From Candidatus Poribacteria bacterium (GTDB lineage: Bacteria; Poribacteria; WGA-4E; WGA-3G), in the NCBI GenBank assembly GCA_963665235.2, contig CAXXLX010000001.1, forward strand, positions 1,504,001 through 1,568,000: DNA of 64,000 nucleotides, given 5' to 3'. The position numbers and the translations under genes were made by a program. This document shows, in pieces, positions 17,265 through 47,117 of the stretch (the first letter of the stretch is position 1; every line of letters begins with the position of its first letter). The notes below the pieces were generated by a model. The model was given only the letters and a program-made list of their open reading frames with translations. It was not told the origin of the DNA and ran no database searches.

Positions 17265-18293
17265 ATGAAAAACACGTCGTATTCCATTTTAATAGCACTG
17301 TTTATAGCAGCAACATTTACGCCTATCAGCCTCGCCCAATATTCCCCGGGAGGCGATTCCCCTGATGGCGAGAAAGCGCGCGTCAGGAAAGGCAAGCTCC
17401 ATATCTATGATGTAAAGTATTCACCAGATAGCACACGGGTCGCGGTAGCCGGTAGTTTCGGTATCCGGCTCTATGATGTTCAGACAGGTGAAGAACCGGT
17501 TCAATTCATAGGGCACCGAGGTAAGAAGGTCTGGAGCGTGGCGTTTAGTCCGGATGGAAAAAGGTTTGTGAGCGGTGGACAGGATAATACCATTCGGTTG
17601 TGGGATGTGAACACAGGAAAACTCCTCCGAACAATCACAGAACGGGCCTGGAGCGTAGCATTTAGTCCAGATGGCACGACGATAGCAAGTGGGGATTGGA
17701 TTCAGACCATTAGTCTATGGGATGTGAACACAGGGAAACGTCTACTTACACTCCCTGGGCATACGATTAAGCTCTGGAGCCTAGCGTTTAGCCCGGATGG
17801 AAGGATGCTTGCGAGTTGTGGCTGTGATTACAATACCGGCAGTGGGTACGATAGCATTCGGTTGTGGGATGTGAAAACAGGAAAACACATACGAACAATC
17901 GGAGAAGAGGCTGCTGGGAATGGCATCACAGACGTGGCGTTTAGTCCGGATGGAAAGACTATAGCTAGTGCCAGCTCATCTATCCTTCGGTTGTGGGATG
18001 TGAAAACAGGAAAACACATACGAACATTTACAGAGGACGCGGCTAGTGTCTGGAGGGTGGCGTTTAGTCCGGATGGAAAGACTATAGCTAGTGCAAATAT
18101 CGGTGCCATCATCGGTTTGTGGGATGTGGAAACGGGAAAACTCCTCCGAACAATCAGCGGGCAGGGTTGTGTCGGAAAAGTGGTGGCGTTTAGTCCGGAT
18201 GGAAAGACTATCGCAAGCGGGGGTTGGCAGGTGGCATATCTGTGGGATGCGAACACGGGACAACGCCTCCGAACACTCATAAAGGATTATTGA
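17265..18293 (+). CDS. Secreted WD40-repeat protein (cassette 1, intact)
   Basis: Signal peptide; about 7 repeats VAFSPDG.TIAS....LWDV. Confidence 0.92.
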   Translation: MKNTSYSILIALFIAATFTPISLAQYSPGGDSPDGEKARVRKGKLHIYDVKYSPDSTRVAVAGSFGIRLYDVQTGEEPVQFIGHRGKKVWSVAFSPDGKRFVSGGQDNTIRLWDVNTGKLLRTITERAWSVAFSPDGTTIASGDWIQTISLWDVNTGKRLLTLPGHTIKLWSLAFSPDGRMLASCGCDYNTGSGYDSIRLWDVKTGKHIRTIGEEAAGNGITDVAFSPDGKTIASASSSILRLWDVKTGKHIRTFTEDAASVWRVAFSPDGKTIASANIGAIIGLWDVETGKLLRTISGQGCVGKVVAFSPDGKTIASGGWQVAYLWDANTGQRLRTLIKDY

Positions 18294-18330
18294 TACAACT
18301 GCGCAGCGGTATATTGCAAGGGGAAACATC

Positions 18331-19547
18331 ATGAAATATGTCAACGCCTGCCTGTTTACGACTTTTATAGTAAAGCTTACAATTATTTATACATGGCAAT
18401 GTGGCAAAAACGCCCGGTTTTCCTCTGCCCCCGCGGGCGGGGGGATAAAGGGGGGTCTTAAAGTCAATGTCCATTTATTTTCCAACTTTACTATATCCTT
18501 ATAACAGCTGTGCAAATCGGTTGTTTATCTACGGGTGTCATGGGCAAGGCAGAGAAATTAGTTGACGCGCAGGATTATCGAGGGGCGATAGACGCTTATC
18601 AAAGCATCATTGATAGTAAACCTGGGACGGTTGACGCACGCGCAGCCCAACTCGCTATCGGTGAACTCTACATTGCACATATCAATCAACCCGAACAGGG
18701 GACTAAAGCATATCAAGCAGTCATTGCTGAAACCCCCGATAGCGATGAGGCGGCAGAGGCACACTATCGTCTCGGAATGCACGCCTATCGTCAAAAAGAT
18801 TTTGACGCAGCGCAAACTCACTTTCGGACTATCGTTATCCGATTTTCGCATCTACATGTACGATTGCGTCAGAATGCTCACCTGATGTTGGCAAAGAGTT
18901 ATGAGGGGGGACAGAAATATGAACAAGCTGTGAAAACTTTTGAGAATTTTGTGAACTGCTATCCACAGAGCAAACGCGCTGCCCAAGCCATAGTCAATAA
19001 AGCGCGCGTCCAACGCAAAATCCTTAAAAATGAGCGGGCGGAATCGCATCTTGAAAAACCAAAAGAAGCGTTCATTGAACGCAATACCTCTCCCTTTGGA
19101 TTTGGCCCATATCCTGAAGTTCCCGCCAATTATCGGTTTCGGAGACAACTTTGGGATAATGCCACGCCAGAGCATGAGTTGTTAGAACGTGTCCGCCTTA
19201 AGTTATGGAAACAGGGCACACAAATTAAAGGTGCCATGTTTGATAATAATGGTCTCATTTATCCAACTATTCCGGGTGTAATTTACGTGGAATGGCGTAC
19301 CGTTGAAGAAGGGCCCCTACAGTTCGTGGGACGACGGTATGCCGCGCACGTCATGGGGCACCCAAATACTGCTAAAAAATGGAGTGCTTCATACCTAACT
19401 GAACTTGGGTTTGAACGCACAGACGTAAAGAAGGACAGTGAGGCATCAGGTATAAAGGTTTATGAGTATCCAGATGGGGGGATAGACCCCTACACATTTC
19501 TCGATTTACCGAAGAGCCTCACTCAAAATCCTCTGCATGAAGATTAA
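18331..19547 (+). pseudogene. TPR lipoprotein with unknown C-terminal domain; signal peptide interrupted by MITE
   Basis: MKYVNACLFTTF at 18331 matches paralog 45561; removing 128 bp leaves a 363-codon ORF with QIGC lipobox. Confidence 0.8.
18368..18493. mobile_element. MITE-C (TAGTAAA.. ends, TA TSD; IS630/Tc1-like signature)
   Basis: TA-TAGTAAAGCTT ... AACTTTACTA-TA; empty site in paralog ~45591-45620; internal CCCCCGCGGGCGGGGG hairpin. Confidence 0.85.
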
Positions 19548-19893
19548 TTTATACTGGCAATTAGCAGTTAGCAATTAGCTCATTGGCGATTAGCGATTGG
19601 CAAGAAATATAAGAGAAGAGAAGAAACCTCTTTGTTTTCTTCCTCTTGCTATAAACCATTAGCCAAAGGTCGATTTGGACAAATCACGTTACCTATTTCC
19701 TGCTGTTTTTTTCAACTGCTTAGCGGTGCGGAGCTGTTCTCTAAGGTGAGGCATCCCCTCAGGTTTTATACTGGCAAATAGCAATTAGCAGTTAGCAATT
19801 CCCAGGTTTCTGAAGCGCGTCAAAAACCTCTTTCTCTTCTAACGGTTTCCAACAGCATAAGCCATAAGCCATAAGCTATAAGCCAATTACACG

Positions 19894-20769
19894 TTACCTA
19901 TTTCCTGCTGTTTTTTTCAACTGCTTAGCGGTGCGGAGCTCTCTAAGGTGAGGCATCCCCTCAGCCTGCTGTATAAACGTGTCCAGAGCCCGGTGCATCA
20001 TGACGGTGTCACCCTTTTTCTGATATGCCTGCGCAAGCCGATAGTGTGCCTCTATCTCACTCTTATCTAACGCTAACCCCTTTTCATAGACAGGAATAGC
20101 GTTGAGAAAGTCTTCGCTCTCTTCATAAGCGAGTCCGAGGTTGAAATAGACCGTAGCGTCACCGCCATCTAGGGCTATGCCCGCTTTATAATGCTGAATA
20201 GCCTCCGGATAGGCTTCCTGATTGAGATACGCATCCGCTAGATTGTAATAGGCATCCACAAATGTTGGGTCTGAATCGATAGCACGCTGATAGGCGACTA
20301 CAGCTTCATCGAACCGGTTGGACATGTCGTAAGCATAACCGAGGTTGTTATAGAAGGCGGGGTTTCCGGGTGAAATTTCAAGTGCCACTTGAAACATATC
20401 TATCGCCAAGAGAAATAGGCGGAGGTCAACGTACACTAAACCGAGGTTGTTATATGCCTGCTGATGGTCTTCGTCAAGCGAAATTGCTGTTTGAAACCTC
20501 TCTATCGCCTTCTCATGTTCACCCAATTTATGATAGATTTTCCCTAATGAGAGATGCCCTTCCGCGTCGAGCGGATTGAGCGTTTGTCCCATCTCAAGTT
20601 TTAGTGCCTCGCGCTGGAGTTCTCTCCGCTGCTTCGTCTCCTCCGGCGCAGAACAGCCGTAGAAAAAGCAGACTATCACGATTATGAATAACAACGTTGA
20701 AACACGGAAACACCGTTTCCCAACAATATTAGGAGGACAAGCCTGATGATTATTGATACCCATACGCAT
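19894..20769 (-). CDS. TPR repeat lipoprotein (true start probably ~20700)
   Basis: Repeated AYNNLG/AYYNLA motifs; FYGC lipobox. Confidence 0.85.
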   Translation of the reverse strand: MRMGINNHQACPPNIVGKRCFRVSTLLFIIVIVCFFYGCSAPEETKQRRELQREALKLEMGQTLNPLDAEGHLSLGKIYHKLGEHEKAIERFQTAISLDEDHQQAYNNLGLVYVDLRLFLLAIDMFQVALEISPGNPAFYNNLGYAYDMSNRFDEAVVAYQRAIDSDPTFVDAYYNLADAYLNQEAYPEAIQHYKAGIALDGGDATVYFNLGLAYEESEDFLNAIPVYEKGLALDKSEIEAHYRLAQAYQKKGDTVMMHRALDTFIQQAEGMPHLRELRTAKQLKKTAGNR

Positions 20770-21582
20770 TTTTACGACCCGACCCGTCCTGAAGGCGTGC
20801 CGTGGCCAAACCCGAATGATGACCTACTTTACCGAAAAGTTATGCCTGACGACTATAAAAAACTTGCGGTGCCTGAAGGTGTAACCGGCACCGTCGTCGT
20901 TGAAGCCAGTGGGTGGCTCGAAGATAACCAATGGATTCTTGAACTTGCCGCAGATGAACCGTTTATTGTCGGTTTCGTTGGAAATTTAGCACCCAGCGAC
21001 CCAAATTTCGCGGCCAACCTTGAACGATTCTCGGCAAATTCGTTGTTCCGAGGCATACGGCTCGGCAGCGGACATCTTCAAGCACTCAGTGATACAGATT
21101 TCTTGGCGAATATTGAGACGTTGGCAGAAAAGGAGCTCACCTTAGACCTGCTGATTAACCCTGCAGCCCTAAAGCACGTGCCCGCCCTAGTTGAGCATAC
21201 GCCGACAATGCGGATTGTGATTAACCACGTCGCAGGCGTTCGCGTTGATGAGAATCCGCCCGACGCAGCATGGGTTTCAACTATACAAGAGGTTGCACGC
21301 TACCCAAATATCTACTGCAAGGTCTCCGGTTTGGTAGAACACACGGGACAAACACCCGCACCGGACGATGTCGCCTACTACACCCCAACAATTGATGTTT
21401 TATGGGATGCCTTTGGAGAGGATAGGCTCATCTACGGCAGCAATTGGCCCGTATCTGAACGTTTCGCACCCTACGCCACAGTGCAAAAAATTGTCAACAC
21501 CTACTTCAGTGCGAAAGGCGATGCTGTCAAGGCGAAGTTCTTCTGGGAAAATGCAAAGGCAGCGTATCAGTTATCGGTTTAG
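20746..21582 (+). CDS. Amidohydrolase family protein (L-fuconolactonase-like)
   Basis: IIDTHTHF, INHVA, CKVSGL, YGSNWPV. Confidence 0.9.
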   Translation: MIIDTHTHFYDPTRPEGVPWPNPNDDLLYRKVMPDDYKKLAVPEGVTGTVVVEASGWLEDNQWILELAADEPFIVGFVGNLAPSDPNFAANLERFSANSLFRGIRLGSGHLQALSDTDFLANIETLAEKELTLDLLINPAALKHVPALVEHTPTMRIVINHVAGVRVDENPPDAAWVSTIQEVARYPNIYCKVSGLVEHTGQTPAPDDVAYYTPTIDVLWDAFGEDRLIYGSNWPVSERFAPYATVQKIVNTYFSAKGDAVKAKFFWENAKAAYQLSV

Positions 21583-22148
21583 GCAACCCATCGCATAAAC
21601 TCTCCGACCGGTTTCCGCGCTGGCTCCTTAATCTCTGCGGGATACCCGGTATAGAAAAAGCCGATGATATATTCCTGCGATGAATCTACGCCGAGCAACT
21701 GATAAGTCTGCTCTTCCATTGTAATTGGCCCCGTGCTCCACTGCATGCCTACGCCTGCATCCCAGGCAGCGAGTTGGACGTTCTGCATTGCACAACAGGC
21801 AGCAGCATAATCTTCGCGTTGGCGTTGTTCATCCCCCTCTTGCAGGCAGGAAACGGCGATAATAGTCGGCTTAGACATAAATTTCTCATAAGCCAATTGT
21901 CCAATCTTCGCAAGATTCTCTGCATCGACGTGGTCGGGTGTACCCTCCATCTTAATTTCGCGGTACCGTTCGGCGAGTGTCTGTTTCGTCTTCTCACCGA
22001 TGACGGTAAACCGCCACGGTTCTGTAATATGGTGATTCGGTGCCCATATTCCGTAGCTAAAAATTTGTTCGATTACATCGTTCGGAACGGTGTCCGGTTT
22101 GAACTTAAAAATAGTGCGTCTTGAAAGAATAGCGTCTTTAACATCCAT
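21579..22148 (-). CDS. Nitroreductase family protein
   Basis: SRRTI, WAPNH..TEPWRF, WSTG. Confidence 0.9.
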   Translation of the reverse strand: MDVKDAILSRRTIFKFKPDTVPNDVIEQIFSYGIWAPNHHITEPWRFTVIGEKTKQTLAERYREIKMEGTPDHVDAENLAKIGQLAYEKFMSKPTIIAVSCLQEGDEQRQREDYAAACCAMQNVQLAAWDAGVGMQWSTGPITMEEQTYQLLGVDSSQEYIIGFFYTGYPAEIKEPARKPVGEFMRWVA

Positions 22149-22235
22149 AAAAAAAATCCTCCTTACTGAATTGAATTATAGTCTATTGGAAGGTTAATTG
22201 CAAAAGTTGACATGTGTCCTATTTAAGCCGTTCCA

Positions 22236-23719
22236 CTAAACGTGCTCAAAGGTTTTGGGTTTTAATTCTACTGCCCTGTTATAGTCCTTGATGGCTCTAT
22301 CCAGCTCGCCTTTTTCATGGTAAGCCGTGCCGCGATTGTAATACGCTTCAACAAAATTTGGTTTTAGTTCAATCGCTATGTCATAATCTTTAAGGGCGCG
22401 GTTATAATCTCCTTTGTCGCGGTAAGCAGCACCGCGATTGCTATACGGCGCGGGATAATCATTTTTTAGCTCTATTGCTTTGGTGCAGTCTTCTATAGCT
22501 AAATCATGGTCGCCCCTGACACGATAAACAGCCCCGCGATTGTTATAGGCAAAGGCATAGTCTGGTTTGAGCGCAATCGCTTTATTAAAATCTTTGATAG
22601 CAAGTTCGAGCTCACCCCTTTCTCCGTAATCAATACCGCGATTGTTATAAAAAGTAGGCTCGTTTGGAGCTAATTCTATCGCTCGGTTATGGTCTTTGAT
22701 TGCGCTATCAACCCTATTTTTTTCCCGATACACGTTACCGCGATTATTATAAGCCCCTGCATAATCAGGTTTCATACAGATTGCCAAATCATACGCAGAA
22801 ATAGCCGATTCTCCGTTACCCCTTTCAGAAAGGAGATAGCCAATGGCAAAGAACGCTGCTGCAGCAACATCCGTCTCGATTTGTTCTACTGTCGCAGCAC
22901 AGGGTGTAATGCCCTCGCTCTCCAATTGAGCCCATACCTCCTCCACTAATTCCGGAAAAAGAGCTTCTATCTTTGGAAAGTGCTGCTCCTGATATGCCTT
23001 AATAAGTATACTGACCCATGTCATGACTGCCGATAAGGGATGATTTTCATCTCCACCGACACCATAGACCAAATCATCTAATACTGCTGCTAGGTGTTGG
23101 TACTCGATTTCTGTCACCGTGACACAGCTAAGATCTTCATTCCGATTTGCGATACCGGTGAATAGGTCCAGTAAACTTATACCATTTCTAATTGAAAATG
23201 TTTCTTTATTGTAGCATAAACTTCCAGTTTGTGTGCTTTATCGTAGCATAAACTTCCAGTTTGTGTGCTTTATCGTAGCATAAACTTCCAGTTTGTGTGC
23301 TTTATCGTAGCATAAACTTCCAGTTTGTGTGTGTAGCATAAACTTCCAGTTTGTGTTTTTGTAGCATAAACTTCCAGTTTGTGTGCTTTATCGTAGCATA
23401 AACTTCCAGTTTGTGTGCTTTATCGTAGCATAAACTTCCAGTTTGTGTGCTTTATCGTAGCATAAACTTCCAGTTTGTGTCCTCCGTTCTCCGTTTCATT
23501 TCCAACAACCGGTAATGATAGAATAATTAATAAAAATGGTATTACAAGCCATTTCACTTCACTTTCCGTATCGGCTGCAGTATCAACAAATTCGGGCTGT
23601 AAAGGTTGTTCATGGGCAAGTAATACCTGTTTTTTGGGGCTATGTTCGCCTGAGAATATGGGCTCAAAAGGCGTGAACGTTGACAATATATTTGGCAGAG
23701 ACTGCGTTCCGACTAGCAT
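22236..23719 (-). pseudogene. TPR protein with HigA-like N-terminal segment, split by MITE-A
   Basis: Removing 23180-23541 plus one TSD joins ..KWLV to SLLDLF.. in frame (373 codons); AYNNRG repeats; VGGDENHPL motif. Confidence 0.8.
23180..23541 (+). mobile_element. MITE-A copy 1 (TACCATTT TIR, TTA TSD, 9 repeat cores)
   Basis: TTA-TACCATTTCTAATTGAAAATG ... TAATAAAAATGGTA-TTA; main unit GTAGCATAAACTTCCAGTTTGTGTGCTTTATC. Confidence 0.92.
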
Positions 23720-23725
23720 GATTTG

Positions 23726-24637
23726 TTAACTCAACAGTGCCTTAAGCGCAGCATCAATCGTCGGATAGCGAAATTCGTAACCGCTCGCCTCAGTTTTCTC
23801 CGGTAGAACATTCTGGCTCAACATAACGAAATCCGCGAACTCCCCCATCATCAACTTCAAACCGAACGCTGGCACCGGAAACAGCGTCGGCCGCCGAAGC
23901 ACAGCCCCGAGTGTCTTTGTGAACTTAATATTTCTGACCGGTGTAGGCGCAGTCGCGTTCAACGCACCGCTTACCTCGTCATTTTCCAAAGCGTGCAGGA
24001 TAATACCCACCACGTCATCAACATGAATCCATGACATCCACTGTGTACCGCTGCCAAGTTTACCGCCGACTCCCATTTTAAAAGGCGGCAGAACTTGATT
24101 CAAAAGTCCCCCCCCTAAGCCGAGCACAAGTCCGATACGAACCGTGACGACCCGGGTGCCAAATTCGTTCGCTTTTAGTGCTTCGGTTTCCCATTCTTGG
24201 CAGGTTTCCGCGAGAAAATCGTTTCCGACAGGGGATTCCTCCGTGAAGGTATCCTCGCCGCTGTCGCCATAGTAGCCGATTGCCGAGGCACAGACGAGCA
24301 CATCCGGTTTAGTATCAGCCTCAGCGAACGAGGCAACGAGGTTACGGGTAGAGAGCACACGACTGTCGCGTATCCGCCGTTTTTTTTCTGCGTTCCATCT
24401 CCCTGCAATCGCTTCACCTGCCAGATGAATCACCGCTTGCACGTCTGATGTCGCTTCTGTGGGAAGCTGCTCCGTTTCAGGGCTCCACCGGTGGAAGGTT
24501 TCTGCTGAATTTAATGTCGTTTGTGCGCGGTCGGGGTTTCGAGACAAGACATGTACTGCATTTCCCTTTTCGTTGAGGGCATCACAGACACGAGTGCCGA
24601 TGAAACCTGTTCCCCCTGTGACCAATACATTTGCCAT
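23726..24637 (-). CDS. TIGR01777/YfcH-like NAD-dependent epimerase family protein
   Basis: VTGGTGFIG, HLAGE, ASAIGYYG, SWIHVDD. Confidence 0.9.
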   Translation of the reverse strand: MANVLVTGGTGFIGTRVCDALNEKGNAVHVLSRNPDRAQTTLNSAETFHRWSPETEQLPTEATSDVQAVIHLAGEAIAGRWNAEKKRRIRDSRVLSTRNLVASFAEADTKPDVLVCASAIGYYGDSGEDTFTEESPVGNDFLAETCQEWETEALKANEFGTRVVTVRIGLVLGLGGGLLNQVLPPFKMGVGGKLGSGTQWMSWIHVDDVVGIILHALENDEVSGALNATAPTPVRNIKFTKTLGAVLRRPTLFPVPAFGLKLMMGEFADFVMLSQNVLPEKTEASGYEFRYPTIDAALKALLS

Positions 24638-24657
24638 CGTTTTCCTCCATGATATTT

Positions 24658-25386
24658 CTATTTTGACAGTTCAGCGATAGCCGCTTCTAAGTGTCGATAA
24701 TCATCAATGACAGCATCGCTGAGTGTATCGTCTACCTCTGCATTATTGAATCCTGTGAAACGTATCGCCTTCATCCGTGCATTTTTTGCCCCGACGATAT
24801 CGGTTCGGTAAATATCACCGATATGGAGTGCTTCTGTCGGTTCAACGTTCAGCTCCTTTAAGGTGGAATGGAATTGCACCACTTCAGGCTTTGTGTGTTG
24901 CGTTTCATCGGAAAAAGTGAACGTTGTGAAGAATTGCAGGATACCGTCGCGTGCCATAAGTTTTCTTACAAAAGTGCCGGGTGTCAAGGCGGAGTCGGAG
25001 ATAATTCCCAGCGGATAGTTTTCGCTGAGCCGTGCCAACACCGGCTTAATATGCGGGATGAGGACTGGCGGGGACGCTAAGAACGCATTGCCAAGACACA
25101 CAACTAACGCATCGATATCGGTGTCCTGAAGGGGAAGTCCGAGTGTCTTAGCCAACCCTCTCATGCAGGTCTCCACCGAAATACCTTTATGTTCATACCA
25201 ATGAGACACCGTCAACTGATACGCCTCCTCAAGTCCATTTTCCACTTCGGTTAGTAGACAATCATATCCACGGTGCGTTAAGTAGGTATGGCACTGTTCT
25301 ATGCGTATAGCTTGACGTTTATGCCAATTCTCGTGAGAATCCGCATAAAGTGTTTGCCAAAAATCAAATGTAATTGCTTTAAGCAT
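24658..25386 (-). CDS. HAD family hydrolase
   Basis: FDFWQTL, KPE, HIGD...DIVGA. Confidence 0.88.
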   Translation of the reverse strand: MLKAITFDFWQTLYADSHENWHKRQAIRIEQCHTYLTHRGYDCLLTEVENGLEEAYQLTVSHWYEHKGISVETCMRGLAKTLGLPLQDTDIDALVVCLGNAFLASPPVLIPHIKPVLARLSENYPLGIISDSALTPGTFVRKLMARDGILQFFTTFTFSDETQHTKPEVVQFHSTLKELNVEPTEALHIGDIYRTDIVGAKNARMKAIRFTGFNNAEVDDTLSDAVIDDYRHLEAAIAELSK

Positions 25387-27627: not shown

Positions 27628-27646
27628 TACCCCTTGGGGAACAGAT

Positions 27647-29218: not shown

Positions 29219-29471
29219 ACCGCTACTAGCAACGGCACTCCCTGAAATGCACTATTTTTAAGCATGAGAGGACACTGAAAAATTATAGCGCGCCATTCAC
29301 TATACCCAAAAACGCTCCGGACTTAGAGGACCCGCACGTGTTAAATCCGCCAACACGCCCGAACGGTGCCCGAATCCCATGCTATTAAGACACTGTCGCT
29401 TCTTGATATGACCGAATTCACTAACCGATATGCCTTGCATTCAAGAGGCATGATAGGAGGAAACACTGACA

Positions 29472-31022: not shown

Positions 31023-31142
31023 CCTATACAATAGGATGCGTCATGGGGAAGTTCCCTGCGGAAACAGACCTATGACGCACCTACGTATCCCGATAGAGAA
31101 TGGATTAGTGCTACGAATCTGCTGTAAGAGAAGGAGTAACCG

Positions 31143-34010: not shown

Positions 34011-34445
34011 ACGTGAGTTTGAAAAATTTTCCCCTCGTATGAGGAGCGGGAAACCGTTTGCCCGAATACTGGGCGATAAGTCGGCTTCTTAGGGACGATA
34101 TGTTTATAGGCATCTGGGTTTCTGCCCGCCTCTTAGTGGTTCACTCGGTAAATTCTTATGTCTTATGAGTTTCCAGATAATAGCCGGGACGGACTACTGT
34201 GCTTGCGACGATGTCGTGTCCATATTACCATACAAACTTAGCGAGCAGACCACTTAGTGGTTCACTCGGTAAATTCTTATGTCTTATGAGTTTCCAGATA
34301 ATAGCCGGGACGGACTGCCGTGCTTGCGACGATGTCGTGTCCATATTACTATACAAACTTAGCGAGCAGACCACTTAGTCCTGTAGGGACGATATATTTA
34401 TAGAAAACCGTTTCCGCCCCGATTCTTAGTCCCGTAGGGACGATA
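34011..34445. mobile_element. MITE-B copy interrupted by nested insertions
   Basis: Collinear with reverse complement of 39235-39422 once 34136-34377 is removed. Confidence 0.7.
34136..34374. mobile_element. Tandem dimer of a 118-bp MITE (GTGGT..ACCAC ends, TTA TSD)
   Basis: TTA-[34136-34253]-TTA-[34257-34374]-TTA; imperfect 19-bp TIR; three substitutions seen between units. Confidence 0.8.
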
Positions 34446-34447
34446 TA

Positions 34448-34685
34448 TAGTGAAACCTATAATTACTTTGACACTTTTGTAGAAGCACACTTTCTAGTTT
34501 GCGGACACGCCTGCACAAACCTTATTGTTTGCGCTACCAAAACCCAGTCCGGGGGTTCATAGCACACGTAGCGGGAACCGCAGGGGCTGGGGGCCCTAGG
34601 GGAAACACCCCAGCAAAAACACCCCTACAAACGGGTTGTGTGTGTGCCCTATCACAGCGTGCTCACATATTTTCAGAATTTACTA
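34448..34685. mobile_element. MITE-C-like element, TA TSD
   Basis: TA-TAGTGAAACC ... AGAATTTACTA-TA. Confidence 0.55.
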
Positions 34686-34690
34686 TATTT

Positions 34691-36099
34691 ATACTAAAGT
34701 TTGGACAATATTCTAGATTTCAAGCAGCCTTGTCAAACGGCAGGGCGTTATCTTGCGTTTTCTCGGTCAGAATATTCTGCGAGTTTGTTTTATCTTCGGA
34801 ACTCGCAGAATATCGGCGGCACAAAATCTGTGCTTGAAGATAAGCAACCCGCAGCCCTTGTGTGAGTTTCTTCGGTTTATACCAATGAATGCCTAGTTTT
34901 TCGCAGACCTGCTCAACACTGATACGTTTTTCTGTCGTTTCCGGCATAGCAAAGATTAGCTTTGTTAGAGACGCTGCAACGAAACTCAGTTGTCCGAAGC
35001 GATTGATGCTTTTGCGCGACTTGACCTGATACCCGCTGAAACCGAAGTGTTGCTTTGCGTCACGAAAGGCTGTCTCTATCTCCCATCTGCGGCGATAGTA
35101 TTCAACAATCTGTGGTATCTCAAGCGTCAAATCTGTCGTCCAGACACAGAAATACCGGTAAGGTTTTGACTGTCTCGTCTCGGTCTCGTTCGGATGACAA
35201 CTAGTCGGACATCTACCGGACACATTTTTGCACTATCTGTGATGCCACTTGATAGTCTTTGCCCATTAGGGAGACCACTTTATACCGCAAGCGCCGGATG
35301 TTTAGACGCGGTCCGTATTTCTTCGGACGCCCGGGGCTCCGACGCTTCGGGGCTTTAGGGCGGCGGTAAAACACCGCATTTGACTTCGCACGACACAAGA
35401 TATGGTGTTTGAATGCCAAAACCGTCTCAAACACTTTGCGACGGGCGAACCCTCTATCAAAGATAATCAGTCCCGCAGGTATCTTTGATACGATACGCTT
35501 CAATACCGCATCCCCTTTGTCACGGACTGTCTTCGGAACAACCAGCCTGACCCACACAGGAAATAGTAAACATTGCGTCGCAGTCTCACACAATAAACCC
35601 AAAGCCGCAAACTCATGACCGAAGTGAAACTTAGATTGATTCACACGCCCCCTCTGATACTTGAAGTTGCGAAAAAAATGTAGACCATATTGACCCTTGC
35701 CGGTTTTCACAGCAGACGTGTGGTCATAAACATAAACCCAATTCGGAAATACCTGCTGTAGCTTTTCAACGAGCTTCACCGCAACAGCATCCGCACTCCA
35801 AACACCCCGGGACAGAAACTTCGGTAAAGACCAATACTTCGTCCCGAAGACACTTGATTGATAAAGACCCGTCAGGGTGCCACCCTGGCTATTGGAAGCA
35901 ATAAAGCCAAAAATCATCGCTTGGAAAAGCGCAAAGTTTTGTGGGTTGAATAAACAACTAAAATGTGATAGAATATCTTGTAAGCAGAAAAGAAGGTTCA
36001 TTTTTATTTTCCTTTCGAAAATTTAATTTATTTTAAAATGATACCTACTTTTTTGCTTCTTGTCCATCTTAATTCTTAAAATTGTCCAAAGTTTAGTAT
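34691..36099 (-). mobile_element. IS701/IS4-like insertion sequence
   Basis: 19-bp TIR ATACTAAA(G/C)TTTGGACAAT at both ends enclosing a DDE transposase gene. Confidence 0.82.
34720..36001 (-). pseudogene. Frameshifted DDE transposase
   Basis: YDHT, FDRGF, GRPKKYG, YRRRWEIETAFRDAKQ; apparently two indels at ~35170-35230 with CPVDVRLVVIRTRP in the third frame. Confidence 0.85.
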
Positions 36100-36291
36100 T
36101 CGTTCAGAAAACGAGATAAATCAGTTTAATTCGGTATAAGCTAGGTTTACAGAACAAGTTTTTTATGAGTGTCAACGAAAAAAAGTTAACAAAACACAGA
36201 AATGAACGGATATATAGAGAAAGATGTCCTGTGTGATGGACAACACCCAAAAAAGTTGACACCGCACACGTTTCTATAGGAGGATAGATTT

Positions 36292-37311
36292 ATGACAAAA
36301 AAAGTTTATGTAGGAATAGGTATCCTGATGCTTCTTGTCCTCGGAAGTGCCATTTTCCTCCTGAATCACAAGTTAGACACGGAACCTGAAGTTATCTATG
36401 AACCGCCCTCAAAGGAGGTTTTAGAGAACCTACGAAAGCAAACCGAACGGGGAACTGCGGCGATAGAGCAACAGTCCGAAGTCAACGGACAGCGTCGCCC
36501 GGTTTCCGACACATCAAACCGTAGTACCGAAACAACAACCGCGGCAGAGAACAATGCCGGTGCCGCGGAAGCAATACCCGACGACTTGGCAGGTATCCCC
36601 CACGTGCGGGGTTTTACCTCGACCAATCCGATGTTCGCGGAGGGTGTCCCTGAACACTTACAATGTCCCAAACAGTGGGTGGGACTTTACGATAGTGAGA
36701 CAGAAGACGACCTATCGGAGATTCAAGCCTACATGCTACCTATTATTTACGAGATTATGACAAAGTATAACCCCGAACGGCCACTGACAGAGGTCTGGCC
36801 TGCGTATATTGAAGCGGAACGCTTTTATTACGAGAATGCGGACCCAGAACTGGGAAACGCAAACGGTGCTAGCGGTAGATTTGATTGGGAATATCAACAC
36901 TTGCTAGATTTCCCAGAGATAATGGTTCTTGCTGAAGAAGACCCGCACCGAATGTCAACCCTTCAGCGGGTATTGATAGGACGTTGGCCTGCCACTTTGA
37001 ACCAACATGAACTGCCGGATGGCAGAATATTCTACGCAGGACACGAAGCGAATTATGAGGTCTGGGAGAAACTCCCCGATGGTATGATGCACCCCGATGG
37101 TATGATGCACCGGTCTGTCGGTTTTGGGCATTCGGACACGGGCCGCATCATCAAGATTTACCCTGACACGATGACAGATGAAGAACTGAAAGCGATCGGT
37201 GGATGGAATTATAATATTGACCCGTATTCAACAGGGTTTTATACACTCCCGCCTGATGCGACCCAGCGCCTCATAGAAAAGATAAAATCTTTTATCTCAA
37301 CGCCACATTAA
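36292..37311 (+). CDS. Hypothetical membrane-anchored protein
   Basis: AGGAGG RBS, N-terminal TM helix; internal 18-bp duplication PDGMMH x2. Confidence 0.75.
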   Translation: MTKKVYVGIGILMLLVLGSAIFLLNHKLDTEPEVIYEPPSKEVLENLRKQTERGTAAIEQQSEVNGQRRPVSDTSNRSTETTTAAENNAGAAEAIPDDLAGIPHVRGFTSTNPMFAEGVPEHLQCPKQWVGLYDSETEDDLSEIQAYMLPIIYEIMTKYNPERPLTEVWPAYIEAERFYYENADPELGNANGASGRFDWEYQHLLDFPEIMVLAEEDPHRMSTLQRVLIGRWPATLNQHELPDGRIFYAGHEANYEVWEKLPDGMMHPDGMMHRSVGFGHSDTGRIIKIYPDTMTDEELKAIGGWNYNIDPYSTGFYTLPPDATQRLIEKIKSFISTPH

Positions 37312-37339
37312 CGCAGTGCTACATTTTAGGAGGTATCTC

Positions 37340-38113
37340 ATGAAAAAAACAGGTATATTTTTCGTTTTAATAGTGTTGATGTTTTTGATATTTGTAGATT
37401 ATGAAGGCACAGCGAAACCGAAAAAGACATATGAAGTGCTGAAAACCCATGATTGGGAAACAGCCGATGCTGATACAGAGCCGATGAATTCTAATTACAT
37501 CCGAGGCAGAGCGAAAAAGTATGGGTACCGAGTGAAGGCGAGCGGTTTCTTGAACGGTGTCACCCAAAACGGCACCATATACGGTCGATCTGGGGATGCC
37601 TATGCCAAAGTAGAGGTTTACACAGACCTAATGAAGATAGGGGACGAAGTGAACGTAGTGTCTTGGATTCGAGCAACCGCTGCACGAAACCTCATCGACC
37701 TGCCTTCACAAGAGTTTCTAAAAAATGTCGGACACCGACCAAAGCACCGAAAACCTAGCCATAAGCATGAATGGGGCTATGTGCAATATGGAGTCTCCTA
37801 TAAACCCGGAATCGCCTCATATGTAAGATTGCATAAGTTGAGGTTCTGGGAGGATCCAGTTAGAAGACCTTTTGAGCATGACTTTGACGTAACCAGTTAC
37901 TTCCATAGGGTAGGAAGTCCCACGGATCTCCCCGACCCGAACCCTTATATCATTGCGGATATAGATATCACGAGCCGTCAGTTTGTAGGGGCAGGAATAG
38001 GTTTTGCTACATTCTATACCCCTATGTGTGAGGGGAGTGATGGTGAGCATCCGATCCCCCTCTTGGAGGATAAGTGCCCGGGTGCTCCAGGCGCAACATA
38101 TACGACACCGTAA
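37340..38113 (+). CDS. Hypothetical secreted protein
   Basis: AGGAGG RBS, signal peptide MKKTGIFFVLIV. Confidence 0.75.
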   Translation: MKKTGIFFVLIVLMFLIFVDYEGTAKPKKTYEVLKTHDWETADADTEPMNSNYIRGRAKKYGYRVKASGFLNGVTQNGTIYGRSGDAYAKVEVYTDLMKIGDEVNVVSWIRATAARNLIDLPSQEFLKNVGHRPKHRKPSHKHEWGYVQYGVSYKPGIASYVRLHKLRFWEDPVRRPFEHDFDVTSYFHRVGSPTDLPDPNPYIIADIDITSRQFVGAGIGFATFYTPMCEGSDGEHPIPLLEDKCPGAPGATYTTP

Positions 38114-38130
38114 GGATTTGTGTATTCCAT

Positions 38131-38170
38131 AACATAGGCAGGTAACCGTTCTGTTACCTGCCTATGTTTT
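38131..38170 (+). terminator. Intrinsic terminator
   Basis: AACATAGGCAGGTAAC-loop-GTTACCTGCCTATGTT followed by T's. Confidence 0.8.
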
Positions 38171-38266
38171 CACCTATTCCCTCTGCATCTGCCGTACCTT
38201 CTTTACACTAAAGCCGCGTAACCTCTGTACAAAAACTTTACACACCCGTTCGGAAATGCAACAAGT

Positions 38267-39190
38267 GTGCCTAAACCGCCCAATGCACGGAAGCGTGGTG
38301 TTGCCAAACTCAAAAAAGCGATGATACTCACACCGGAATTTGAGGCACTCTGGGAACGGATTAAGCACAAAACGCGATACAAAGTTGACATTGACACTGA
38401 AAAATTAATCGCTGAGGTCGTTGAGGCATTAGATGAAACCAACATCCAATTACCTAAAATAACGATTAGAAAGGGTATAGTGGTAATTGATGAAGAAAAC
38501 GAGTTTAAGGTTCAACACACCGGAGACGGCAGCTTGGCATATCGCTTGTCGGGCCGTGCAAATGTTTTGAGGTTAATTGAGCATCGGCTGGCGCATACTA
38601 CCCCTACAATGAAATTGACGCGTCAGACCCTTTGGGAAATTCTCAATCGCACAAAAAATCAACAAGCAGTCTTAGACAATCCCCCTGAATTTTCTAAAGT
38701 TGTGGTGAAACACATCAGGAAGAAAATTATGCATCAACTGATTGATGGTGTAAAGTATGAGAAGATCGGTGAGGTGTATGAGATGCGTCAGTTCGATTGC
38801 AAGTTGGAAAGCTGGAAGGATTGCATGGTTCCCGCGTCGCGCTCCATCTACGATTACGTAATATGGGATTCGGAAGTTGAAAAGAGGTTCGTTGAAGGAT
38901 TAGAAGAGCGAGACGACATTAAACTCTATCTGAAACTTCCTGCTTTTTTCACTGTGCCAACCCCTATAGGCAACTATAACCCGGATTGGGCGATAGTCAA
39001 AGAGGACAGAGATGCACATGGTGAACCGACCGGTAAAGAAAATCTCTATCTAGTTAGAGAGACCAAAAGCACAACTAATTCAGAAGACCTCCGAATCCGT
39101 GAACAACAGAAAATCAATTGTGGCGAGCGGCACTTTCGTGATGCTCTCTGCGTTGATTACGCGGTTGTTACCTCTCCTGAGGAAATCTAA
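38267..39190 (+). pseudogene. C-terminal fragment of type III restriction endonuclease Res subunit
   Basis: PEFEALWERI, DSEVE..F, YLKLPAFF.VPTPIGNYNPDWA, RETK; helicase part and mod gene absent. Confidence 0.8.
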
Positions 39191-39234
39191 TAGCTGCAGG
39201 ATGGACGCAGCGCGTTGATAATTCCTTATGATAA

Positions 39235-39422
39235 ACGTGAGCTTGATAATAAATGTCCGTTTGCACTAACCTTTATAAAGATATCGTCCCTACGGGACTA
39301 AAAGGAGGATAGAAACCCAGATGCCTATAAAGATATCGTCCCTAAGGAGCGGGCTTATCGCCCAGTATTCAGGCAAACAGCCCGCTCCTCATACTAGGTG
39401 AAAACTTTTTTCAAGCTCACGT
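39235..39422. mobile_element. MITE-B copy overlapping GH2 stop codon
   Basis: ACGTGAGCTTGA...TCAAGCTCACGT; flanks TATGATAA / TAAGATAC (6/8). Confidence 0.8.
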
Positions 39423-42086: not shown

Positions 42087-42282
42087 TTATCAGTCCATCC
42101 TTACTGTTTTCGCGCAAATAGCTGTCAGTCAATAACCGTTGTCGGGTTTCGCAAGCTCGACCCGACCTATAAATAACCAGTCATTCGCACGTGCTGAATT
42201 TGTTTTCTTTTATAATACACAATCCGCATATTTTATGCAACGATTAAAATACGAGTGTGTAAAGTTTTTGTACTATGATAGT

Positions 42283-42381
42283 GGGAAGGGTGGAAGGGTG
42301 GAAGATTGGAAGGATGGAAGAGGGTGGAAGGGTGGAAGGTGGAAGGGTGGAAGAGTGGAAAGATGGAAGGGTGGAAGAGTG
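42283..42381 (+). repeat. Purine-rich 7-8-bp tandem repeat (GGAAGGGT/GGAAGATT); relatives ~47222-47255, 61240-61266, 62468-62495
   Basis: Direct reading. Confidence 0.8.
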
Positions 42382-42636
42382 GATTTCGCTTGTGTTGTCT
42401 GAATCGCGGATGACACGGAGAACACGGATTTCGCGGAGTGTCCGATGCGTAACAATCCAAGTTTTGTGATTATAGTTTTAGCGTTTTTTTGTCTGAATGC
42501 ACGTCGCATTTGGGCGAGTACGCCACAAATCGCGGATTATCGCGGAGAACGCGGAAGACGCGGAGTTTAAGAAATGTCCGCCTATCTAGAAAGGTATCGC
42601 GTGCCCAGCACGCTCCTACATAACACGTTAAGTACA

Positions 42637-42808
42637 ACGTGAGTTTGAAAAAAAGTTTCTTTAGTCCCAGTATTCGGGCAAACGGTTTCCCGCTCCTCAA
42701 GGACGATATCTTTATAGATAACCGTTTTCCCAACGCTTCTTAGTCCCATATTCGGGCAAACGGTTTCCCGCTCCTAGCACAAACGGACATTTATTATCAA
42801 GCTCGCGT
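42637..42808. mobile_element. MITE-B copy with perfect 8-bp TSD
   Basis: TAAGTACA-ACGTGAGTTTGA ... TCAAGCTCGCGT-TAAGTACA. Confidence 0.88.
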
Positions 42809-42907
42809 TAAGTACAAAAATTTTACGCACCCAATCAGACGGGTGTGTAAAGTTTTTGTACGGCTGCGATATTTTTTATGAAGAAAAATCAAACAGTTCG
42901 CAACTAA

Positions 42908-43275
42908 TACCATTTCTAATTGAAAATGTCTCTTGATTGTAGCATAAACTTCCAGTTTGTGCGCTTTATCGTAGCATAAACTTCCAGTTTGTGCTTTATT
43001 GTAGCATAAACTTCCAGTTTGTGCGCTTTATTGTAGCATAAACTTCCAGTTTGTGCGCTTTATCGTAGCATAAACTTTTAGTTTGTGCGCTTTATTGTAG
43101 CATAAACTTTTAGTTTGTGCGCTTTATCGTAGCATAAACTTCCAGTTTGTGCGCTTTATCGTAGCATAAACTTCCAGTTTGTGCTTTATTGTAGCATAAA
43201 CTTCCAGTTTGGGTCCTCCGTTCTCCGTTTCATTTCTAACAACCGGTAATGATAGAATAATTAATAAAAATGGTA
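42908..43275 (+). mobile_element. MITE-A copy 2 (TAA TSD, 9 cores)
   Basis: TAA-TACCATTT...AAATGGTA-TAA; linker mostly CGCTTTAT(C/T); similar empty site CAGTTCGCAACTAATAGAACAGAGAA at 25951. Confidence 0.92.
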
Positions 43276-43395
43276 TAACATAACAGAGAACCAAAACATT
43301 TTTCGGAGGAAAGCGGCACGGTTTGCAACTCACCTGATTAGCCACCGATAGCGAAAGTGTGACATTTCATTTTTTTGAAATCGTCCAAGGTGGGT

Positions 43396-43895
43396 CAAAA
43401 CCGCTTACGAACATAGACGGGGCAGGCGTTCAGGAACATCCACCACCGAGAACCGAATGTCACACTTTGTGTCAAAAGTGTAACATTTACACCAGAACAG
43501 CACACAAAAGTAGGCAGGAGTGATAACCGAAAACCGGCAGCCAAAATGGCACAACGCGTTTTTTTGTGTTGCGAAAAATATAGGGGTAAATCGCCTATAA
43601 ACATAGACGTGGCGTGGGTTTGTGCGAATACAGCACCGAGAACCAAATGTTACACTTTGTGTCAAAAGTGTAACATTTCCACCGGACCGCCTCAAAAAGT
43701 AGGAGGCAGCACGGTAAGAAAAGTCCGCAGAACTGATACCTGAAATCGGCGGTTGAAATGACACATTTTGTTTTTTTTGTGTTGCGAAAGCGAGAGTGCA
43801 AAACGGCTTACAAACATAGATAGGGCATGCGTTTGTGCACATGCAACACCGAAAACCAAATGTTACACTTTGTGTCAAAAGTGTAACTTATGCAC
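43396..43895. repeat. Three diverged ~190-213-bp direct repeats, each with a 28-bp palindrome
   Basis: TGT(T/C)ACACTTT-GTGTCA-AAAGTGTAAC(A) at 43458, 43648, 43861. Confidence 0.85.
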
Positions 43896-44499
43896 CGGTT
43901 TTGTACAAAAACTTTACACACCCCAATCAGACAAGACGATTGACATTTAAGCCAACACAGGGTAAAATAAACGTAACGTTATAAGGAGAACTCCTTCATG
44001 AAAAACACTTTGTACTCCATTTTGACAGCACTGTTTGTAGCGGCAACATTTACGCCTATCAGCCTCGCCCAATATTCCCCGGGATGGGATTCCCCTGATG
44101 GCGCGAACGCGCGCATCAGAGGAGGTAAGCTCCGCATCTATGATGTAAAGTATTCACCGGATAGCACACGGGTCGCGGTGTCCGGTAGCTTCGGTGTCCG
44201 GCTCTACGATGTTCAGACAGGTGAAGAACAGGTTCAATTCATAGGGCACCGAGGTAAGAAGGTCTGGAGCGTGGCGTTTAGTCCAGATGGAAAAAGGCTT
44301 GTGAGCGGTGGACAGGATAATACCATTCGGTTGTGGGATGTGAACATAGGAAAACACATCCGAACAATCACAGAACGGGCCTGGAGCGTAGCATTTAGTC
44401 CAGATGGCACGACGATAGCAAGTGGGGATTGGATTCAGACCATTAGTCTATGGGATGTGAACACAGGGAAACGTCTATTTACACTCCCTGAAAATATAA

Positions 44500-45007
44500 T
44501 ACCATTTTTATTAATTATTCTATCATTACCGGTTGTTAGCAATGAAACGGAGAACGGAAGACCCAAACTGGAAGTTTATGCTACGATAAAGGGCACAAAC
44601 TGGAAGTTTATGCTACGATAAAGGGCACAAACTGGAAGTTTATGCTACGATAAAGGGCACAAAGAGGCACAATCTGGAAGTTTATGCTAACGAGTTGTGC
44701 TAAATGACTTTTTGTACAACATTATTTCACACAAGAACGTTTTGTCCGTGCTTCTCATTGGTTTGGACGCTCTTCAGTCCCAGTATTCGGGCAAGCAGCC
44801 CGCTCTTTAAGGACGATATCTTTATAGCTAAGCGTTCCACCTTTCTCTTTAGTCCCATAGGGACGATATGTTTGTATGACAACATCCAATATCTGTGAGA
44901 AAAACAAAAACAACCAGTTAACTGGCACAAGTCATTATGCTACAATAAAGAGGCACAATCTGGAAGATTATGCTACAATAAAGAGACATTTTCAATTAGA
45001 AATGGTA
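44500..45007 (-). mobile_element. MITE-A copy 3 (inverted, TAA TSD, 5 cores, nested insertion)
   Basis: TAA-TACCATTTTTATTAATT ... TTCAATTAGAAATGGTA-TAA. Confidence 0.92.
44690..44934. mobile_element. 245-bp element nested in a MITE-A repeat core
   Basis: TTATGCTA duplicated on both sides; imperfect ends CGAGTTGTGC / GCACAAGTCA; internal TTAGTCCCATAGGGACGATAT repeat. Confidence 0.7.
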
Positions 45008-45560
45008 TAACTAAGCTCTGGAGCCTAGCGTTTAGCCCGGATGGAAGGATGCTTGCAAGTTGTGGCTTCGAGTACAATACCGGCAGTGGGGACAATACCA
45101 TTCAGTTGTGGGATGTGAAAACGGGAAAACACATCCGAACAATCAGAGAAGAGGCAGTTGGGAATGGCATCACAGACGTGGCGTTTAGTCCGGATGGAAA
45201 GACTATAGCTAGTGCCAGCTCGTCTATCCTTCGGTTGTGGGATGTGAAAACAGGAAAACACATCCGGACATTTACAGAGGAGGCGGCTGGTGTCTGGAGC
45301 GTGGCGTTTAGTCCGGATGGAAAGACTATAGCTAGTGCCCATATCGGTGCTATCGGTCTGTGGGATGTGGAAACAGGAAAATTCCTACGAACAATCAGCG
45401 GACAGGGTCATGTCGGAAGAGTGGTGGCGTTTAGTCCGGATGGAAAGACTATCGCAAGTGGGGGTTGGCGTGGGGCATATCTGTGGGATGCAAACACAGG
45501 ACAACGCCTCCGAACACTCATAAAGGATTATTGACACAGCATATTGCAAGGAGAAATATC

Positions 45561-47117
45561 ATGAAATATGTCAACGCTTGTCTGTTTACGACTTTTATTC
45601 TTATCACAGTCCTGCAAATCGGCTGTTTATCCACAGGGGTGATGGATAAGGCAGAGAAATTGGTCGAAGTAAAGGATTATCGGGGTGCAATAGAGCTTTA
45701 TCAAAGCATCGTTGATAGTAAATCCGGCACGGCTGCCGCACGCACAGCACAACTCGCTATCGGTGAACTCTACATTGCACATATCAATCAACCCGAACGC
45801 GGGATTGAAATCTACAAAGCGGTCATTGCTGAAGCCCCCAATAGCGATGAGGCGGCAGCAGCACACTATCGTCTCGGGATGCACGCCTATCGTCAAAAAG
45901 ATTTTGACGCAGCGCAGACCCACTTTGAGACTGTCGTTAACCAATTTCCGCCTCTACAATTGCGTCAGAATGCACACCTGATGTTGGCAAAAAGTTATGA
46001 GGAAAGGCAGAAATATCAACAAGCTGTGGAAACTTTTGAGGATTTTGTGAACCGCTATCCACGGAGCAAACGCGCTCCCCAGGCCCGCGCCAATAAAGCA
46101 CGAATACAACGCAAATTCCTTAAAAAAGACTTAGAAGCATCGGTTGAACCCAATGCTTCTGAGGGCTCTATAACCCCCATCAGGAAAGGTCAGATTAAGG
46201 TTAATAACATACAGTATTCACCCGATGGCACACACCTTGTGGTGGCGGGCAACTTCGGGATTTTGCGCTATGATGTTCAGACAGACGACGCACCTGTCAA
46301 ATTCACAGGGCACTCAGGGAGAGCCTGGCGCATCGCGTTTAGTCCAGACAAAGTGCTGTTCGCAAGTGTCAGTTCGTCCGGGGAAATTTATCTGTTGGAT
46401 GTGAACACGGGAGAACGTCTCCGAACAATTAAAGAGCCAGAATTAGGCATCTCGGGTATAGCATTTAGCCCGGATGGCAGGACGCTAGTAAGTGGAAACG
46501 CTGACCATACTGTCTGTGTATTCGATGTGGACACAGGGAAACGGCTCCGAACCCTCATAGGGCATACAGCTCCCATCTTTAGCGTGGCGTTTAGTCCGGA
46601 TGGCAGGACAATCGCTACGGGTAGTTCTCGTGAGGATAGCACAGTGCGTTTGTGGGACGCACGGACAGGAGAACACCTCCGAACTCTCACGGGGCATGCG
46701 TATCATGTCTTTAGTGTAGCGTTTAGCCCGGACAGGACGCTGCTTGCAAGTGGTGGTGGTCTTGACGGAACGGTCCGCTTGTGGGATGTAAACACGGGAA
46801 AACAGGTCCGAACACTTCCAGAGGACCATCCGGGAGATACTATAGGTACGTGGAATCGTATGAGTCCGCACCAATGCGTAGCTTTTAGTCCGGATGGCAG
46901 GACGCTCGCAAGTTTCGGTGGTTTGGGCATTCGTTTATGGGATGTGAAAACAGGCAAACTTCTCCGCAAACTCAGGGAGCGCAATGGCAGTCATGGTATT
47001 AGTGTGGTGGCGTTTAGTCCGGATGGCAAGACGCTAGCAGTTTGCGCTAGCGACGAAGTCGATCTGTGGGATGTGAAAACGGGAAAACAAATTCGAAGAC
47101 TCATAATTCCATTTTGA
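45561..47117 (+). CDS. TPR + WD40 lipoprotein (cassette 2, intact)
   Basis: AAGGAG RBS, QIGC lipobox, N-half paralogous to 18331 gene, C-half WD40 repeats. Confidence 0.9.
   Translation: MKYVNACLFTTFILITVLQIGCLSTGVMDKAEKLVEVKDYRGAIELYQSIVDSKSGTAAARTAQLAIGELYIAHINQPERGIEIYKAVIAEAPNSDEAAAAHYRLGMHAYRQKDFDAAQTHFETVVNQFPPLQLRQNAHLMLAKSYEERQKYQQAVETFEDFVNRYPRSKRAPQARANKARIQRKFLKKDLEASVEPNASEGSITPIRKGQIKVNNIQYSPDGTHLVVAGNFGILRYDVQTDDAPVKFTGHSGRAWRIAFSPDKVLFASVSSSGEIYLLDVNTGERLRTIKEPELGISGIAFSPDGRTLVSGNADHTVCVFDVDTGKRLRTLIGHTAPIFSVAFSPDGRTIATGSSREDSTVRLWDARTGEHLRTLTGHAYHVFSVAFSPDRTLLASGGGLDGTVRLWDVNTGKQVRTLPEDHPGDTIGTWNRMSPHQCVAFSPDGRTLASFGGLGIRLWDVKTGKLLRKLRERNGSHGISVVAFSPDGKTLAVCASDEVDLWDVKTGKQIRRLIIPF

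Follow-up and report, generated by a model that had tools for sequence, protein, structure and literature searches.

Probably recent, tolerated insertions of miniature inverted-repeat elements into redundant WD40 and TPR genes of a Candidatus Poribacteria sponge symbiont

Three genes for WD40 or tetratricopeptide repeat (TPR) proteins are split by miniature inverted-repeat transposable elements (MITEs) in a 64,000-nt stretch of a Candidatus Poribacteria genome (hereafter the window; C1:1504001-1568000 of genome G000, with contigs named C1, C2 and so on). Each element is bounded by a short target duplication, and its exact removal would restore an open frame. Are these genes the parts of a reversible switch, or have they been struck by ordinary transposition that the cell can tolerate? 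Our analysis makes it probable that the elements, which we call MITE-A and MITE-B, inserted recently and were tolerated because the genes that they entered belong to redundant families of repeat proteins. The source genome comprises 5.31 Mb in four contigs (47.6% G+C; completeness 92.6%). By Pfam, the 39 reading frames of the window encode mostly enzymes and envelope proteins; they include two WD40-TPR gene cassettes, whose parts are listed in Table 1 together with those of a third TPR gene (TPR3) and the MITE copies.

The original prediction described cassettes 1 and 2 as paralogous, and they align in three collinear blocks with 93% (17246-17757/43979-44490), 91% (17768-18368/45012-45598), and 85% (18494-19030/45596-46126) DNA identity; the likeness stops at 19030/46126. 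It also placed one insertion in the TPR gene of cassette 1, one in the WD40 gene of cassette 2, and one in TPR3. The alignment of the cassettes and the analysis of element ends and duplications confirmed all three positions. When the element and one copy of the duplication were deleted in a script, frames of 362 (cassette 1 TPR), 341 (cassette 2 WD40), and 372 (TPR3) residues were obtained that contain no further stops; with the stop codon counted, these are the 363, 342, and 373 codons foreseen. The inserted lengths, including the duplication, are 128, 511, and 365 nt, respectively, none of which is divisible by three. The restored WD40 protein of cassette 2 has 298 residues identical to those of the 342-residue protein of cassette 1, and the restored TPR frame of cassette 1 begins with a hydrophobic N-terminal leader whose last residue is Cys 22. 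The second gene of cassette 2 had been taken for an intact TPR lipoprotein. It is intact; however, because a WD40 propeller continues beyond 46126, this gene is a TPR-WD40 fusion of 518 aa rather than a simple TPR lipoprotein, and it resembles the cassette 1 TPR gene only over about the first 190 codons.

Two of the insertion sites lie beside small clusters of sequence change. At the WD40 site of cassette 2, 6 of 11 positions (44489-44499 plus 45011, compared to 17757-17767) differ from cassette 1, while the flanks are 93% identical. The patch reads GGGCATACGAT in cassette 1 and GAAAATATAAC in cassette 2; through this change, the WD repeat loses its Gly-His and a good target for MITE-A arises. 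No donor for this patch was found among the other paralogs or the flanks of a sibling MITE-A copy described below. The second cluster is found to the right of MITE-B, where five to six substitutions within 30 nt (18496-18525) are specific to cassette 1, and cassette 2 agrees with a third cassette (c3) located elsewhere in the genome.

MITE-A has inverted ends (TACCATTT..AAATGGTA), and searches of the genome with the two ends returned 147 and 166 matches. The 32-bp internal unit, which has a GTAG head, occurs in tandem, and could form a small hairpin, is present in 170 clusters with 1-24 units per locus. The copy number is about 140-170. We delimited 140 copies in which both ends were paired; their lengths range from 112 to 2879 bp, with 133 copies between 112 and 883 bp and seven exceeding 900 bp. 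An identical 3-bp duplication flanks 129 of these copies (TAA in 68, TTA in 58), and the flanking sequences show an extended palindromic target, roughly WWV-TWA-BWW. One of the copies longer than 900 bp was scanned, and its long frame turned out to be a nested IS630-type DDE_3 gene (1.2e-20) rather than a partner transposase. Terminal inverted repeats, a duplication of fixed length, small size, many copies, and no transposase gene of its own together characterize MITE-A as a MITE. The copy in the cassette 2 WD40 gene contains three of the 32-bp units and a nested 256-bp repeat from another family; a sibling composite copy is located at C1:2290536-2291200, and the inner parts of the two are 98.5% identical.

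MITE-B is rarer. The genome contains three full copies with the inverted ends TAGTAAAG..CTTTACTA and a fixed TA duplication (3/3), and two of the three are 100% identical over 129-130 nt. The two copies outside of cassette 1 are intergenic according to the spanning-frame test described below.

Thirty relative genomes were searched; all lie outside the genus of the source genome, and the cassette's best DNA match among them has 79% identity. Relatives of MITE-A (78-87% identity) were detected in three of the thirty, all from one sister genus. In one of the three (G017), we delimited 19 related copies among the first 20 of 29 listed places; 18 of the 19 have an identical 3-bp duplication.

Two further repeats adjoin MITE-A copies. 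The inner part of the WD40 copy (44670-44925) belongs to a repeat family with 178 local matches genome-wide, whose roughly 58-bp core frequently occurs in tandem. Directly beside another MITE-A copy, an array at 62422-62981 consists of at least 10 mostly identical units of 40 bp with a GC-rich hairpin; a single copy of this unit is present at 42583-42628.

Does MITE-A prefer particular genes? A copy was counted as intragenic if, after in silico excision, a frame of at least 150 codons spanned the site with at least 30 codons on each side. Only 19 of the 140 copies passed, compared to 64% of 3000 random TAA/TTA sites (binomial p 5e-35); MITE-A is therefore strongly depleted in genes. None of the 19 copies from G017 passed. 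This distribution is what purifying selection leaves, with insertions surviving in dispensable genes. To name the genes that were hit, both halves of the 19 candidates (17 outside the window and two inside) were scanned with Pfam. The scan identified the WD40 gene and TPR3 of the window, two YhgA-like Transposase_31 genes, an Eco57I/TaqI-type restriction-modification methylase, and a 930-codon fn3 frame. In two other candidates, a GT2 or an ECF sigma domain begins right after the site, which probably places the insertion upstream of the gene; no Pfam domain was found in the remainder. The enzyme genes had been said to lack such insertions, which holds for the window but not genome-wide, given the split methylase gene. 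Both YhgA-like genes (L015, C1:1852811-1855588; L020, C1:3556708-3558203) are split by MITE-A at residue 124/125, and in L015 an IS630-type DDE_3 gene (404 aa) is nested within the copy.

The original prediction called for a test of genome-wide enrichment of MITEs in WD40 and TPR genes. Searches with phmmer identified 76 WD40 frames (152 kb) and 88 TPR frames (146 kb), which together make up 5.6% of the genome and 6.6% of the DNA covered by frames. Six of the 140 MITE-A copies are located within 300 bp of a WD40 frame, compared to 2.7% of random non-coding sites (p 0.17), and four within 300 bp of a TPR frame, compared to 3.2% (p 0.65). The probability of at least two WD40/TPR hits by MITE-A alone is 0.055-0.36, with 6, 9, or 19 of the candidates accepted as real genes, and that of three hits with MITE-B added is 0.008-0.14 over the same range; both are uncorrected for the window having been flagged because of these very cases. 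MITE-A thus has no clear preference for sites in or near these frames; a mild excess of hits is possible.

Sequences from related samples allowed us to look for empty sites. Thirteen public runs are listed for positions 17000-24500, of which 11 cover part; all are available as assembled contigs, which drop rare variants. Four of them (X2, X5, X6, and X7) were compared at 90% likeness over this interval, which contains the sites in cassette 1 and in TPR3. In X6, a contig of 2441 nt is syntenic from the nitroreductase to the epimerase gene, with 87 differences in 1541 aligned letters. This contig skips exactly 365 nt (23177-23541), that is, MITE-A plus one duplication, and thus represents an exact empty TPR3 site. 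It is the only true empty site seen, and the X6 strain is about 5.6% diverged. In X2, a contig extends from 21774 into the element (to 23231); this site is filled. For the same-host runs X2 and X5, no contig with the exact empty TPR3 site was found, although at about 5x cover and in assembled contigs rare alleles would escape. X2 may be the source sample of the genome, or close to it, and is not independent evidence of fixation. The TPR3 gene of X6 also differs at 22357-22741, where 383 nt are missing and 77 other letters are present. The net loss of 306 nt corresponds to three TPR units of 34 residues, and therefore the repeat number varies between strains.

The MITE-B site is more difficult to read. 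One contig from X2 joins 18365 to 18494, skipping 128 nt, with a depth of 6.8. We rejected this junction as an excised allele: since all seven listed variants at 18581-18631 equal those of c3, and the total depth at this position is about twice that of the contig, the junction is read as the c3 paralog. X6 has three junctions without the element (skips of 128, 129, and 142), for which the orthologue and the paralogs are indistinguishable. In X7, an RNA library, a contig syntenic with cassette 1 begins at 18511 after 38 unmatched letters, which suggests a strain without MITE-B; the DNA run matching X7 also shows forms without the element. At 18581-18631, the X7 contig carries the same seven c3-like letters as X2. 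These letters alone therefore cannot tell a cassette 1 allele from the paralog, which is a caveat on the reading of the X2 junction. For the WD40 site, metagenome contigs contained neither the 27-nt empty form nor the unchanged 30-nt left flank; the allele is absent from these contigs, and the blank is uninformative. The search for empty-site junctions in the same population thus gave no coexisting empty allele in the contigs of X2 and X5, in which rare ones would not show. Downstream of the cassette 1 TPR gene (19698-19940), the contigs from X6 and X7 skip about 200-213 nt, which is probably another small strain-specific insertion.

The genome offers considerable redundancy for the interrupted genes. 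In c3 (C2, about 624894-627115), both genes are intact; the WD40 protein is 369 aa long and the TPR protein, whose leader is complete, 360 aa. The c3 and cassette 1 TPR genes share 87% DNA identity. This third intact cassette and the large numbers of WD40 and TPR frames support the proposal that the genes are dispensable. The c3 TPR protein had no relative in the genome contigs collection. For the WD40 paralogs, a dN/dS of 0.47 was obtained for the part upstream of the insertion and 0.30 for the part downstream; for the cassette 1 TPR gene, compared to c3 downstream of its insertion, it is 0.33. Neutral decay downstream of the insertions is not apparent in either gene, and the insertions are therefore young relative to the divergence of the paralogs. 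In a three-way split, the interrupted cassette 1 TPR branch has a dN of 0.073, compared to 0.044 and 0.035 for the other two; the counts are small, and the faster branch is a weak hint of relaxed constraint. The possibility of very recent insertion that the original prediction had offered is supported by the intact frames, the identical MITE-B copies, the 98.5% identical sibling copy, and the empty TPR3 site in a 94%-identical strain.

The proteins of the cassettes carry signal peptides, and their sequences fit a secreted propeller and TPR pair that would act at the cell envelope. The TPR domain matches the NCBIfam model TIGR02795 (tol_pal_ybgF) with 84.5 (c3 paralog) and 84.3 bits, compared to a cut-off of 90.1, and also matches BamD/YfiO. 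A search against solved structures returned only generic TPR designs, YbgF, and YfiO. The propellers match TolB (TIGR02800) weakly, with 39-54 bits and a cut-off of 343. The arrangement is analogous to the TolB/YbgF(CpoB) pair in that a gene for a secreted beta-propeller adjoins a TPR gene whose best match is tol_pal_ybgF. However, neither the TPR domain nor the propeller reaches the curated NCBIfam cut-off, the propellers are canonical WD40 (PF00400), and no tolQRA or pal genes are found beside the cassettes in the annotation of the window; the layout is similar, but the cassette is not a member of the Tol-Pal system.

Neither a cognate transposase for MITE-A nor a resident enzyme for precise excision was found in this genome. 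Searches for the MITE-A ends outside of the known copies revealed no element in which both ends surround a transposase gene. PF13359 (DDE_Tnp_4) had no match in this genome, and PF01609 had eight, none of which is bounded by MITE-A ends. Two loci, C1:1804598 and C2:143448, were considered as autonomous elements and rejected; they share about the first 25 nt of the MITE-A end, but each is present once and has no second end. An end motif also lies near two PF01609 loci, which were likewise dismissed as unrelated single-copy genes. Because the genome is 92.6% complete, the partner may be unassembled or lost.

Tourist-type MITEs and their IS5/PIF-Harbinger partners create a 3-bp TWA duplication, and Stowaway-type MITEs of the IS630/Tc1/mariner superfamily a TA duplication. 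MITE-A shares with the Tourist type the TWA duplication (TAA or TTA at 126 of the 140 copies), short inverted ends, and an AT-rich palindromic target; unlike Tourist-type elements, it has no partner among the transposase genes found in this genome, and its superfamily assignment therefore draws on the duplication alone. MITE-B is similar to the Stowaway type in its length of 126 bp, its inverted ends, and its TA duplication, but has only three copies. The internal organization of MITE-A is reminiscent of the BrickBuilt MITE of Porphyromonas gingivalis, for which the portion of Klein et al. (2015; PMC4596501) used here describes inverted ends, a leader and tail, and a spacer-less tandem minisatellite with a variable number of units. 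BrickBuilt is described there as always intergenic, with a unit of 23 nt and, in strain ATCC 33277, 19 copies (PMC4596501); in contrast, MITE-A has a GTAG-headed hairpin unit of 32 nt (1-24 per locus) and about 140-170 copies, of which a minority lies inside genes. A literature search found no paper combining "Poribacteria" and "miniature inverted-repeat".

Taken as recent, tolerated insertions, the three cases would have the following history. Two families of gene-less transposons would recently have entered three genes, each belonging to a very large, redundant family, by ordinary cut-and-paste or copy-in transposition with the transposase supplied in trans. Selection would remove most insertions into genes, and the survivors would sit in dispensable genes, namely those for WD40 and TPR paralogs, a restriction-modification methylase, and an fn3 repeat protein, as well as selfish YhgA-like genes. 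If the surviving insertions sit in such genes, then the split genes would be young pseudogenes or encode truncated products and would not be parts of a programmed switch. The seemingly reciprocal knock-out of the two cassettes would be a coincidence, harmless because of the third intact cassette. Several observations weigh against this explanation. The frames are perfectly restorable, and the odd 11-nt patch may record earlier events at the WD40 site. Two of the better-supported intragenic hits by MITE-A, or three with MITE-B, are in WD40/TPR genes, possibly a mild excess. Furthermore, only assembled contigs were compared, in which rare empty alleles from the same population would go unseen, and this comparison ends before the WD40 site.

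The exact duplications, the restorable frames, the signal peptides, and the occurrence of three repeat-protein hits within 27 kb, with a possible mild excess, could also be expected if the MITEs inserted into and precisely excised from genes for surface or periplasmic repeat proteins, so that the cells of a symbiont population would always differ in which WD40 and TPR proteins work. Such a scheme is known for insertion sequences: the part of bioRxiv 10.1101/2023.04.27.538605 that we draw on reports experimental demonstration of both states and of reversion for IS492 in epsG (Pseudoalteromonas atlantica) and for insertion sequences in the O-antigen cluster of Xanthomonas oryzae, each with its own transposase. 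As in those systems, a mobile element lies within a coding sequence and its exact removal would restore the gene; unlike in those systems, there is no coexisting empty site in the contigs, no transposase gene with these ends in the genome, and no hot spot was found. The X2 junction at MITE-B is most simply c3, and the one true empty site comes from a diverged strain. MITE-A is depleted in genes and not concentrated at WD40/TPR frames as a preferred recurrent target would require, and none of its 19 relatives delimited in G017 is intragenic. With a third cassette intact, a switch at the two cassette loci would also be ineffective. We therefore consider reversible phase variation quite unlikely, and the more elaborate version, in which insertion and exact excision act as a population-level switch of secreted eukaryote-like repeat proteins, cells differ in the WD40 and TPR sets that they present to the host, and the 11-nt patch is the scar of repeated visits to one site, very unlikely. 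Removal at the RNA or protein level, as for introns or inteins, would leave the genes functional and has only the restorable frames in its favor. The window contains no match to any Rfam family, those of group I and II introns included, and the inserted lengths are not multiples of three. Inverted ends, duplications, and more than 100 mostly intergenic copies are marks of DNA transposition, and the X7 contig fits a strain lacking MITE-B rather than splicing; we regard such removal as exceedingly improbable. A reversible or RNA-level switch, the alternative put forward in the original prediction, thus received no support. A different possibility is that the loss of function itself was advantageous, for example through removal of a protein recognized by the host, and that the insertions were swept to fixation. 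The possible mild excess of WD40/TPR hits and the filled TPR3 site in X2 fit this idea, as does the proposal, in the section of PMC3909097 relied on here, that eukaryote-like repeat proteins mediate host interaction in Poribacteria. However, related paralogs remain intact, the methylase and YhgA-like genes among the other victims fit simple dispensability, X2 may be the source sample, and the available tests do not separate advantage from neutrality; selected loss appears unlikely. Recent, tolerated insertion into redundant genes remains the probable explanation.

Table 1. Parts of the two cassettes, TPR3, and the MITE copies, in window coordinates
Feature	Position	Strand	Evidence
Cassette 1 WD40 beta-propeller gene, intact, 342 aa, N-terminal signal peptide	17265..18293	+	Open frame; Pfam WD40 PF00400 1.4e-50
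Cassette 1 TPR gene, 5' piece (start codon, first signal-peptide codons, left TA duplication)	18331..18367	+	ATG at 18331
MITE-B, 126 bp, inverted ends TAGTAAAG..CTTTACTA, TA duplication, in signal-peptide codons of the cassette 1 TPR gene	18368..18493		
Cassette 1 TPR gene, 3' piece (right TA duplication, YbgF/CpoB-like TPR domain, C-terminal part without Pfam domain)	18494..19547	+	Pfam TPR_6, TPR_16, YfiO
TPR3, 3' piece, TPR repeats, one TTA duplication	22236..23179	-	Pfam TPR_1 1.3e-53
MITE-A copy in TPR3, 362 bp, TTA duplication, array of 32-bp hairpin units	23180..23541	+	
TPR3, 5' piece, about 59 codons, no domain, second TTA duplication at start	23542..23719	-	
MITE-A copy, 368 bp, intergenic; longest spanning frame after excision 53 codons	42908..43275	+	
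Cassette 2 WD40 gene, 5' half (signal peptide, first blades; left TAA duplication at end)	43998..44499	+	
MITE-A copy in cassette 2 WD40 gene, 508 bp, TAA duplication, composite	44500..45007	-	
Cassette 2 WD40 gene, 3' half (right TAA duplication at start)	45008..45534	+	
Second gene of cassette 2, an intact TPR-WD40 fusion of 518 aa (in order, signal peptide, YbgF-like TPR domain, WD40 propeller)	45561..47117	+	
MITE-A copy, 372 bp, intergenic; spanning frame 99 codons, through repeats	61937..62308	+	

Other features of the window were noted in passing. In the region 34056-39378, a split DDE transposase (34720-36001), two frames that lack a Pfam domain, and a gene encoding a restriction-endonuclease domain (38267-39190) lie between inverted repeats of 82 nt (89% complementary); the region is possibly a larger mobile unit. 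A direct duplication of 121 bp is present at 34129-34370. Heptamer-like runs of GGCAATT/GGCGATT are found at several gene ends (16174-16222, 19769-19817, 55238-55286, and 61627-61868), and a reading frame of 2138 aa on the minus strand (47259-53675) has no Pfam match at 1e-5.

The abundance of WD40 and TPR proteins in Poribacteria is known (from the section of PMC3909097 cited above). For annotation, and for pangenome counts of such "eukaryote-like proteins", the present cases call for caution, as deleting the element and one duplication in silico can rejoin split genes; in read mapping, paralogs can mimic empty sites. Were the switch real, gene-less transposons would here be seen for the first time to phase-vary host-interaction proteins in an uncultured symbiont of animals. 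At present, the finding is of descriptive value: Poribacteria contain very active MITE families, and these are eroding some genes of the expanded WD40 and TPR families.

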